Of a stretch of DNA of 64,000 nucleotides, positions 53,516-56,500 are shown one piece after another. Source of the DNA: Opitutales bacterium. Its GTDB lineage: Bacteria; Verrucomicrobiota; Verrucomicrobiia; Opitutales; Coraliomargaritaceae. The stretch lies in the NCBI GenBank assembly GCA_046540835.1, contig JBKHEL010000002.1, forward strand, positions 1,723 to 65,722, in the 5' to 3' direction. Both the position numbers and the translations under genes were made by a program. How positions within the stretch are numbered: position 1 is the stretch's first letter; the number at the start of each line of letters is the position of its first letter. The notes beneath the pieces were generated by a model, which was not told the origin of the DNA, did no database searches, and was given only the letters and a program-made list of their open reading frames with translations.

Positions 53516-56500
53516 ATGAGCACTGAAACAGCACGCGACGTCCTCGGCTACGAAGCCACGAAACCCTTTGACCGGGTCGGTATCACCGTTGCCGCCCCGG
53601 ACATCATCCGCAACTGGTCCCGGGGTGAAGTAAAAAACCCGGAGACGATCAACTACCGGACCTTCAAACCGGAGCCGGGCGGCCTGTTCTGCCAGCGCAT
53701 CTTTGGTCCGGTCCGCGACTATGAATGCGCCTGCGGCAAATACAAGCGGATCAAATACAAGGGAGTGATCTGTGATCGCTGCGGCGTCGAAGTCACCGTC
53801 TCGCGTGTCCGCCGTGACCGTATGGGCCATATTGAGTTGGCCGTTCCGGTAACGCATATTTGGTTCCTGAAGAGCATGCCGAGCCGCCTCGGTCTGCTGC
53901 TGGATGTGACCGCACGTAATCTGGAGCGCGTCATTTACTACGAGAACTACCTGGTTATCAACCCGGGCAAGACGCCCCTGGAAGAGCGTCAATTGCTCAC
54001 CGAGCAGGAGTATCTTCAGGCTCAGGATGAGTATGGTGAGGATTCCTTTGTTGCCGGAATGGGGGCTGAGGCGGTGCGTGATGCGCTGGCGCTGGTGGAC
54101 CTTGAAAGCACGGTCGCCGAGCTTCATGAGCAGATGCACGCGACCCGTTCGAAGCAGATTAAGAAAAAGATTTCCAAGCGGCTGAAGACGATCCAGGGCT
54201 TCATGACCTCGGGCACGCGGCCCGAGTGGATGGTGCTGGACGTGCTTCCGGTGATCCCCCCGGACCTGCGTCCACTCGTGCCACTTGAGGGTGGCCGCTT
54301 CGCGACTTCCGACCTCAACGACCTGTATCGCCGGGTGATCAACCGGAACAATCGGCTGAAGAACCTGCTGCAATTAAAGACGCCGGACGTGATCATCAAC
54401 AATGAGAAGCGCATGCTCCAGGAGGCCGTCGATGCACTCTTCGACAACGGCCGTCACGGGCGTGCGGTGACCGGAGCGGGGAATCGCCCGCTCAAATCGC
54501 TCTCCGATATGCTCAAGGGCAAGCAGGGCCGCTTCCGCCAGAACCTGCTCGGCAAGCGGGTCGACTACTCCGGACGCTCGGTCATCGTCGCCGGTCCTTC
54601 GTTGAAACTGCACCAATGCGGCCTCCCCAAGAAAATGGCGCTGGTGCTCTTCGAGCCCTTCATCATCCGCCGCCTGAAGGAGCTGGGCTTCGTTCACACC
54701 GTGCGCGGTGCCCGCAAGATGATTGAGAAGCAATCCCCGGAAGTTTGGGATATTCTCGAGGAAGTGACGAAGGGTCACCCGGTGCTGCTCAACCGTGCAC
54801 CGACGTTGCACCGTTTGTCCATCCAGGCCTTTGAGCCGGTCCTGATTGAGGGAGATGCGATCCGGGTTCACCCCCTCGTCTGCACCGCTTACAATGCCGA
54901 CTTCGACGGTGACCAGATGGCCGTTCACGTGCCGCTTTCTCTTGAAGCGGTCATGGAGGCCAAAACGCTCATGATGGCGACTCATAATATCTTCTCGCCA
55001 TCTTCGGGCAAGCCGATCCTGACGCCCTCTCAGGACATCGTCCTCGGTTCCTATTTCCTGACGCTCGATCCCCCGGTCAAGGCCGAGGAAGGTAAGCGCC
55101 TGCCGATGATTGTCGATGCCGATGAGTTGGACAGCGCGGTGATTGACGGCGCGCTCAGCGTGCACGACCACATCAATTTCGTCAACCCGGACTACGGCAA
55201 GGAGGAGACGCCCTACGGCAATTCCGAGAAGAAGGTGATTCAAACCACCGTCGGGCGGGTGGTCTTCAACACGATTTGGCCCGAAGAAATCGGGTTCGTT
55301 AATTTCCCGGTGCCGAAAGGAAAGCTCGGCGATATCATTCTGCAGACCTACAAGTCCGTCGGCAAGGAGCGAACCGTCGAAACGCTCGACCGCCTCAAGG
55401 ATACGGGCTTCAAGGTGGCGACCCGGGCCGGTGTTTCGATCGGGATCGACGATATGATTATCCCGGCTGCGAAAGCGGGTATCGTCAAGGATGCCCGGAA
55501 GCGTATCGACGAAGTCGAAGGCCAATACAAAAAGGGGATCATCACCGAAGGTGAGCGTTACAATAAGATTATTGATATCTGGACGGGCACCACAGATGCC
55601 ATCGCCCAGGAGGTCTTCGACGAACTCAAGTCCAACGGGGGCAAGCCCAGTGTGAATCCGGTCTATCTGATGATGGATTCCGGTGCGCGGGGGAACAAGC
55701 AGCAGGTCCGCCAGCTCTGTGGCACCCGGGGCCTGATGGCCAAGCCCTCCGGTGCGATTATCGAGCGTCCGATTCTTTCCTCCTTCCGCGAGGGGCTCTC
55801 TGTCCTTGAATACTTCATCTCCACCCACGGTGCCCGCAAGGGGCTGGCTGACACCGCGCTGAAGACAGCAGACGCCGGCTACCTGACGCGTAAGCTCTGC
55901 GATGTGGCCATGGACTGCATCATTGAAGAAGTTGACGACGGCAACCGCGACGGCGTTTGGAAGTATGCGATTTATGAAGGAGATGATGAGATCGTCAGCC
56001 TCTATGATCGCATTGTCGGTCGTTGCTCCTCGAATGATATCAAGAATCCGCTCAACCCCGACGAATTCCTGGTGAAGAGCGGTGAGCTGATTACCGAAGC
56101 AGCCGCCCGAAAAATCGAGGATGTCGGCGTGGAGCGTGTCAAAGTGCTCTCTGCATTGACGACCCGCAAGAAGGTGGGCATCACCGCACTGGAATACGGG
56201 ATCAACCCCGCATCCAGCACGATGGTGGAACGTGGCGCCTCGGTCGGGATTATCGCGGCTCAGTCGATTGGCGAGCCTGGCACACAGCTGACCATGCGGA
56301 CCTTCCACATCGGTGGGATTGCCTCCGGGGTGCTCAAAAACCCGGAGATCAAAGTCCGCGCCAGCGGTAAGGTGAAGTATAAGGGCCTGCGTATCGTGCA
56401 GACCGCTGACGGAGCCAATATCGTGCTGAATAAGACCGGCTCGGTTCAGATTCTTGACGAGGACGAGCGCGAGATCGAAACCTACAAGATTGTCGTGGGC

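Follow-up and report, generated by a model that had tools for sequence, protein, structure and literature searches.

Loss of the four-cysteine ligand set of the second zinc site in RNA polymerase beta-prime across the bacterial order Opitutales

The window analyzed here, a 64,000-nucleotide (nt) stretch of contig JBKHEL010000002.1 from an Opitutales bacterium (assembly GCA_046540835.1), carries the usual gene run tuf-nusG-rplKAJL-rpoB-rpoC, the last gene of which encodes the beta-prime subunit of RNA polymerase. In bacterial beta-prime, bridge helix and trigger loop are separated by roughly 100 residues that fold as a small domain, and a zinc ion joins its two ends. This ion is here called Zn2 to distinguish it from the zinc ribbon near the N-terminus (Zn1). 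Zn2 is regarded as conserved in the bacterial enzyme and as a requirement for its largest subunit to fold and assemble. Markov and colleagues (1999, Genes Dev 13:2439) reportedly implicated it in enzyme assembly. The canonical set of four cysteine ligands (Cys4; positions 814, 888, 895 and 898 in Escherichia coli) is absent from the window's rpoC and from every other Opitutales sequence in our samples, and we think it probable that a metal-free connection has taken its place. The features that bear on this are listed below, with residue numbers counted from the TTG codon at 53462 (18 are to be subtracted for a start at the ATG at 53516).

49678..53472, plus strand: rpoB, RNA polymerase beta subunit of 1264 amino acids (aa), from the open reading frame list and its translation; directly upstream of rpoC.
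53516..57751, plus strand: rpoC, beta-prime subunit, matching TIGR02386; sole copy in the genome.
53726..53782, plus strand: N-terminal zinc ribbon Zn1 with C89, C91, C104 and C107; intact.
54893..54913, plus strand: catalytic motif NADFDGD, aa 478-484; intact, in columns that are invariant in the alignment.
55718..55720, plus strand: C753 (E. coli A741), a new cysteine.
55892..55918, plus strand: C-terminal end of the bridge helix, with the clade signatures C813 (E. coli V801) and M817 (E. coli Q805).
55925..55948, plus strand: former zinc knuckle 1, EEVDDGNR, with D826 for C814 and the clade signature R829 (E. coli H817).
55961..55963, plus strand: K834 (E. coli M822), a clade-signature lysine that is also found in Phycisphaerae.
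56024..56026, plus strand: C855 (E. coli V843), a cysteine in most Opitutales.
56138..56200, plus strand: former zinc knuckle 2, with L896 for the near-invariant R883 and T901, T908 and E911 for C888, C895 and C898.
56270..56317, plus strand: conserved 16-residue motif, aa 937-952, beginning 24 residues past the former site; intact, in invariant columns.

The last of these motifs we take to be the trigger-loop region, and the segment GYLTRKL...D to be the C-terminal end of the bridge helix.

The protein was aligned with phmmer to two solved beta-prime chains and with MAFFT to a set including E. coli K-12 rpoC from RefSeq. Both methods are concordant and place no gaps at either zinc knuckle relative to E. 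coli beta-prime. In knuckle 1, EEVDDGN (aa 822-828, nt 55925-55945) lies opposite E. coli TEDDCGT, and in knuckle 2 a segment of 21 residues (aa 893-913, nt 56138-56200) lies opposite 21 residues of E. coli. The four ligands correspond to D826 for C814 (nt 55937-55939), T901 for C888 (nt 56162-56164), T908 for C895 (nt 56183-56185) and E911 for C898 (nt 56192-56194). The arginine at E. coli position 883, a companion of the Cys4 site, is also not present and is occupied by L896. A sequence-only reading of the stretch had already named these four replacements as gap-free; with the two alignments in agreement, the misalignment that could have undone its claim is ruled out, and the interval it gave, 55930-56200, covers the site, with base 55930 itself out of frame.

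The gene that carries these replacements is the functional and sole beta-prime gene of this bacterium, which belongs to the Coraliomargaritaceae/Puniceicoccaceae group. Its product scores 1700.1 bits against TIGR02386 (cut-off 963.5) over model positions 2-1146, as expected for full-length RpoC, and matches all solved bacterial beta-prime chains with E = 0. It is the single rpoC match in a 98.9%-complete, 2.65-Mb genome, in line with the earlier claim that the change sits in the only core enzyme. The claim that the N-terminal ribbon is intact likewise stood, and all four Zn1 cysteines are kept in 76/76 Opitutales as well as in the outgroups. The closest public loci are 84-92% identical and come from metagenome-assembled genomes (MAGs) of Puniceicoccaceae, Coraliomargaritaceae and Opitutales and from two Thalassobacterium isolates, which assigns the window to Verrucomicrobiota (class Opitutia in the NCBI taxonomy). 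An artefact, be it through misalignment, faulty assembly or binning, or decay of a gene copy, has a negligible chance of explaining the pattern, which recurs in over 120 independent genomes, some of them complete and some from isolates, and which here sits in an intact 1429-aa frame with all motifs, in a single copy, under strong purifying selection and in two gap-free alignments.

To delimit the trait, 401 Verrucomicrobiota genomes were searched with a 180-residue segment around the site, and the segment was taken from representatives of each family. The Opitutales sample comprises 50 segments from nine GTDB families (f1-f9); the GTDB-based searches put these families in one order, which was taken as Opitutales, and the class and family names of the coded groups were assigned by us. 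Cys4 is kept in none of these 50 segments, and it is kept in all 40 segments from other Verrucomicrobiota, 16 of them from other orders of the same class (nine families) and 24 from other classes. Among 80 related full-length loci, the only carriers of Cys4 are two distant outgroups at 55% identity, and the set is missing from 76/76 full-length Opitutales loci. The loss is therefore an old, order-wide character and not peculiar to one genome, which answers the earlier proposal to map a cysteine-lacking clade by alignment across bacteria, in a sample that is mainly Verrucomicrobiota. Cultured strains among the matching loci are the two Thalassobacterium isolates and strain IMCC26134, which has a complete genome.

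The residues at the four former ligand positions differ between subclades. In the order of E. coli 814, 888, 895 and 898, they read DTTE or DSTE in the window's family and in f4; DHPA, DHSA, DHPS, NHPA or DHCA in f2 and f5-f9; CSDS, SSDS, SSDC or CCDS in f3, which is apparently Opitutaceae by the titles of matching loci; and DCTS or DNTS in one further Opitutales group. No one quartet of soft ligands is shared by all Opitutales, and at every one of the four positions some subclade still has cysteine.

The replaced ligands do not stand alone. Seven alignment columns part the 50 Opitutales sequences from 41 Cys4 sequences without overlap: in E. coli numbering, V801 to C, Q805 to M, 817 to R, 822 to K, R883 to L or M, C888 to T, S or H, and C898 to E, S or A. 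The signature of C801, M805, R817, K822 and L/M883 together with non-Cys4 ligands is found in 50/50 Opitutales and 0/41 others, and the window's rpoC shows it in full (C813, M817, R829, K834 and L896, with DTTE). In a wider sample of 139 Cys4-type cluster representatives, position 883 is arginine in 137. In Opitutales, a companion of Cys4 that is otherwise kept almost everywhere is thus replaced exactly where the site is gone.

A FastTree phylogeny built from 79 full-length sequences after removal of the site columns recovers Opitutales as monophyletic (support 100) on a long stem (0.48), with the branching among its five main subclades unresolved. The minimal number of changes from cysteine to another residue on this tree is two at position 814, four at 888, one at 895 and two at 898. 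Together with the cysteines that survive in some subclades, these counts point to one remodelling on the Opitutales stem followed by separate decay of the leftover cysteines in each subclade, which would be the simplest history. In a second tree, to which full-length rpoC of other orders and classes were added and in which the site columns were masked, Opitutales fall inside Verrucomicrobiia (support 95) beside Cys4-bearing orders, and since they nest among these orders, rpoC was passed on by vertical descent.

Within the window's family, the replacement residues are under purifying selection and are not drifting. Across 46 family members, knuckle 2 is 91.6% identical, as compared with 88.0% for the whole protein, and T908, E911, C813, M817, R829, K904, G906 and I907 are invariant. 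Except for M817, with its single ATG codon, these invariant residues are encoded by two to four synonymous codons each (four for T908 and two for E911). D826 is present in 45/46 members, and position 901 is threonine or serine.

A set of conserved oxygen ligands might suggest that aspartate, threonine, threonine and glutamate bind a hard cation (Mg2+, Ca2+ or Na+) instead of zinc, as a metal swap in a marine lineage. D826, T901 (or serine), T908 and E911 are indeed all oxygen ligands, invariant or nearly so in the 46 members despite free synonymous change. However, this set occurs in two of the nine families only, and patterns such as DHPA, CSDS, SSDC and DCTS cannot form such a site yet share the stem substitutions. 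The invariant basic residues R829, K834, R902 and K904 nearby favor salt bridges instead, and we consider a hard-cation site very improbable.

The reading that we favor, and hold to be probably correct from the pattern of substitutions, is that Opitutales have exchanged the Zn(Cys)4 staple for a metal-free one. In other bacteria, the zinc staple links C814, where the chain comes out of the bridge helix, to C888, C895 and C898 on the strand that runs into the trigger loop. On the stem of Opitutales, a single replacement event would have occurred together with V801C, Q805M, x817R, x822K and R883L/M. With the metal dispensable, the cysteines that remained could then have been lost independently in the subclades, with the former ligand positions in the window's family settling as Asp, Thr (or Ser), Thr and Glu. 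These four residues may form a network of hydrogen bonds and salt bridges with Arg829, Lys834 and the basic stretch RKK at 902-904. Nearly every subclade has an acidic residue at 814 or at 895/898 that could pair in the same way with Arg829, Lys834 and local basic residues. Met817 and Leu896 would provide hydrophobic packing in place of Gln805 and Arg883, the polar partners of the zinc-thiolate cluster. The alignments show directly that the ligands are gone, in which order they are gone, which substitutions were fixed with the loss and that the new residues are under selection; that Opitutales beta-prime is also zinc-free at Zn2, as the sequence-only reading has it, is what we infer from sequence, and that reading is in this sense partly supported.

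Three observations weigh against this reading. First, the former ligand positions are enriched in metal-capable residues (D, E, H, C, S and T), about two of which are kept in most subclades. Second, Cys801 occurs in 126 Opitutales and 120 Phycisphaerae sequences, the two independent lineages in which the site is broken, as compared with 1/139 Cys4-type sequences, so that it looks like a substitute ligand. Third, the contacts proposed above could not be checked by modelling. AlphaFold2 models of aa 231-1429 and aa 781-960, run as the sequence-only reading had proposed for seeing what replaces the metal, have a mean predicted local distance difference test score (pLDDT) of 59 and 56; the domain core scores 77-93, and the knuckles, which score 72-78 in one and under 50 in the other, are of too low confidence for contacts to be read.

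The first two of these observations could also mean that Zn2 was rewired rather than lost, with zinc or another soft metal bound close to where the bridge helix ends, through ligands newly recruited around Cys813 (E. coli 801). In the window's protein, Cys813 would act with Cys819 (E. coli L807), Cys855 and/or Asp826 and Glu911; in other subclades its partners would be His, Cys or Asp at the former ligand positions. The enzyme would then have two metals, as before. The sequence-only reading had set aside the cysteines in LCD, MDC and GRC (C813, C819 and C855) as lying outside the ligand positions. That placement is correct, yet the dismissal may not hold for C813: it is invariant in Opitutales (50/50 segments and 76/76 full-length loci), arose independently in Phycisphaerae (120/120) and is found once among the 139 Cys4-type representatives, which leaves room for an alternative ligand set. 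Further new cysteines, C753, C819 and C855, are conserved in 46/46 members of the window's family, and the metal-capable residues retained at the old positions also count in favor of rewiring. Apart from Cys813, however, no ligand is conserved order-wide: position 819 is cysteine in 50/76 Opitutales and valine or methionine in the other 26/76, and position 855 is cysteine in 68/76 and phenylalanine or glycine in 8/76. Cys4-type enzymes have hydrophobic residues at 801 (V 118, A 12, I 7, L 1 and C 1 in the 139 representatives), at 807 (V/L/I) and at 843 (V/T/Y/F), which points to core packing in which cysteine is an ordinary replacement. Arg883, near-invariant with Cys4, is replaced by Leu or Met. 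On balance, we judge rewiring to be unlikely, though less so than any of the other alternatives. If it were true, Opitutales and Phycisphaerae would have a metal site of different construction, perhaps weaker or sensitive to redox state, directly at the hinge that joins the two mobile elements of the catalytic center, bridge helix and trigger loop.

C753, a cysteine in 76/76 Opitutales where other lineages have Ala, Ser or Gly, lies shortly before the F-loop and became fixed on the stem branch on which Zn2 was lost. Going by RNA polymerase structures, its place before the F-loop is presumably far from the Zn2 site.

The Phycisphaerae sequences came from a search with a profile of the Opitutales segment against 1.84 billion protein cluster representatives. 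Among the best 150 matches, which were analyzed, 139 carry Cys4, and the other 11 are mostly of Opitutales type (some of them fragments), with one, P0044, belonging to another lineage. The 119 closest relatives of P0044 are labelled Phycisphaerales, Phycisphaeraceae, Phycisphaerae or Planctomycetota wherever they are named. In this set of 120 (P0044 and P0153-P0271), none has Cys4, and 105 read C-S-S-D (C814, S888, S895 and D898), with an extra cysteine one residue before 895 (C894). Cys801 and Lys822 are present in 120/120, and Q805 and R883 are kept. Phycisphaerae beta-prime therefore resembles that of Opitutales, from the same Planctomycetes-Verrucomicrobia-Chlamydiae (PVC) group of phyla, in lacking Cys4 and in having Cys801 and Lys822, and differs from it in keeping C814, R883 and Q805 and in having C894 and D898. 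With C801, the retained C814, the shifted C894 and D898 could make a Cys3Asp site, a point in favor of rewiring; the Phycisphaerae site may be a differently wired one that still binds metal.

In the tree with masked site columns, Phycisphaerae form their own clade apart from Verrucomicrobiota. Because this clade is independent, Zn2 has been remodelled at least twice in the superphylum, with V801C both times, and these events, only two in number, suggest that the Zn2 site is structurally coupled to the final turn of the bridge helix. Horizontal transfer of rpoC between Phycisphaerae and Opitutales, considered as a source of the shared Cys801 and Lys822, was rejected on the separate clades of the same tree.

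As for what drove the loss, one candidate is zinc economy, that is, adaptation to zinc-poor water; this concerns the cause only and is compatible with a metal-free staple. By MAG titles, the window's family is largely marine, and the genome's matches to ribosomal proteins L33, L32 and S14 look cysteine-free (contigs C104, C70 and C20), while L31 and L36 were not found in this genome with E. coli baits. Cysteine-free L33, L32 and S14 are, however, common in bacteria generally. The loss is order-wide in habitats that vary by record titles, Zn1 is kept in every member, and the genome has no further rpoC with zinc ligands as an alternative. Zinc economy is thus a doubtful cause, and we give it little credence.

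A precedent for the metal-free reading is found in the C-minus ribosomal proteins (L31, L33, L36 and S14), in which a structural Zn(Cys)4 site has given way to a metal-free form within an unchanged fold. These often occur in paralogue pairs that are switched by the zinc regulator Zur. In contrast, Opitutales have one rpoC only, and the change is fixed across the order. The largest RNA polymerase subunits of archaea and eukaryotes (A'/A'' and Rpb1) are not known to hold zinc at the equivalent of Zn2, so that a fold without it is possible; in these subunits, bridge helix and trigger loop are separated by a domain of another architecture (the foot domain). In comparison with the canonical site of E. 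coli, the Opitutales version is alike in protein, in position between bridge helix and trigger loop and in knuckle spacing, and differs by D/T/T/E at the ligands, by Leu for Arg883 and by the new invariant Cys813, Met817, Arg829 and Lys834.

Full-text literature searches found no description of Zn2 loss in Opitutales, nor of a coupling between the bridge helix and Zn2. The loss is newly delimited here, with defined accompanying substitutions and a parallel in Phycisphaerae, and amounts to a variant of a known enzyme that has recurred in nature. It overturns nothing and leaves the understanding of transcription unchanged. Opitutales do provide a natural test of whether Zn2 is needed for folding of the enzyme, in an order that is partly cultured (Opitutus and Coraliomargarita among others), and the list of co-fixed substitutions indicates which changes may make zinc dispensable.

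A few observations concern the genome and its relatives more broadly. The omega subunit (PF01192) is present in 198/201 Verrucomicrobiota genomes, including the same genus and all sampled members of the family. It was not found in the 157 contigs of the window's genome, even at E <= 0.1, most likely owing to an assembly gap. Because relatives keep omega, the Zn2 change does not reflect a wider loss of factors that aid assembly, and a coupling between loss of omega and loss of Zn2 was dropped for the same 198/201 count.

The open frame of rpoC runs from TTG 53462 to 57751 (1429 aa), and this TTG overlaps the end of rpoB by 11 nt. Either TTG 53462 or ATG 53516 could be picked by a gene caller. 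The true start is most likely the ATG (M19, MSTETARD...), which lies 43 nt past the rpoB stop and fits the consensus N-terminus of relatives.

In the f9 lineage (locus L126, genome G333), an insertion of about eight residues (DDNKTIDDK) directly follows the former knuckle 1. The same locus is the only sampled Opitutales sequence with a cysteine at 895 (pattern DHCA). Opitutales-type rpoC was also seen in MAGs labelled Akkermansia, Bacteroidaceae and Sphaerochaetaceae (loci L038, L043, L060 and L061); these nest within Opitutales subclades, and their labels or bins are probably wrong.

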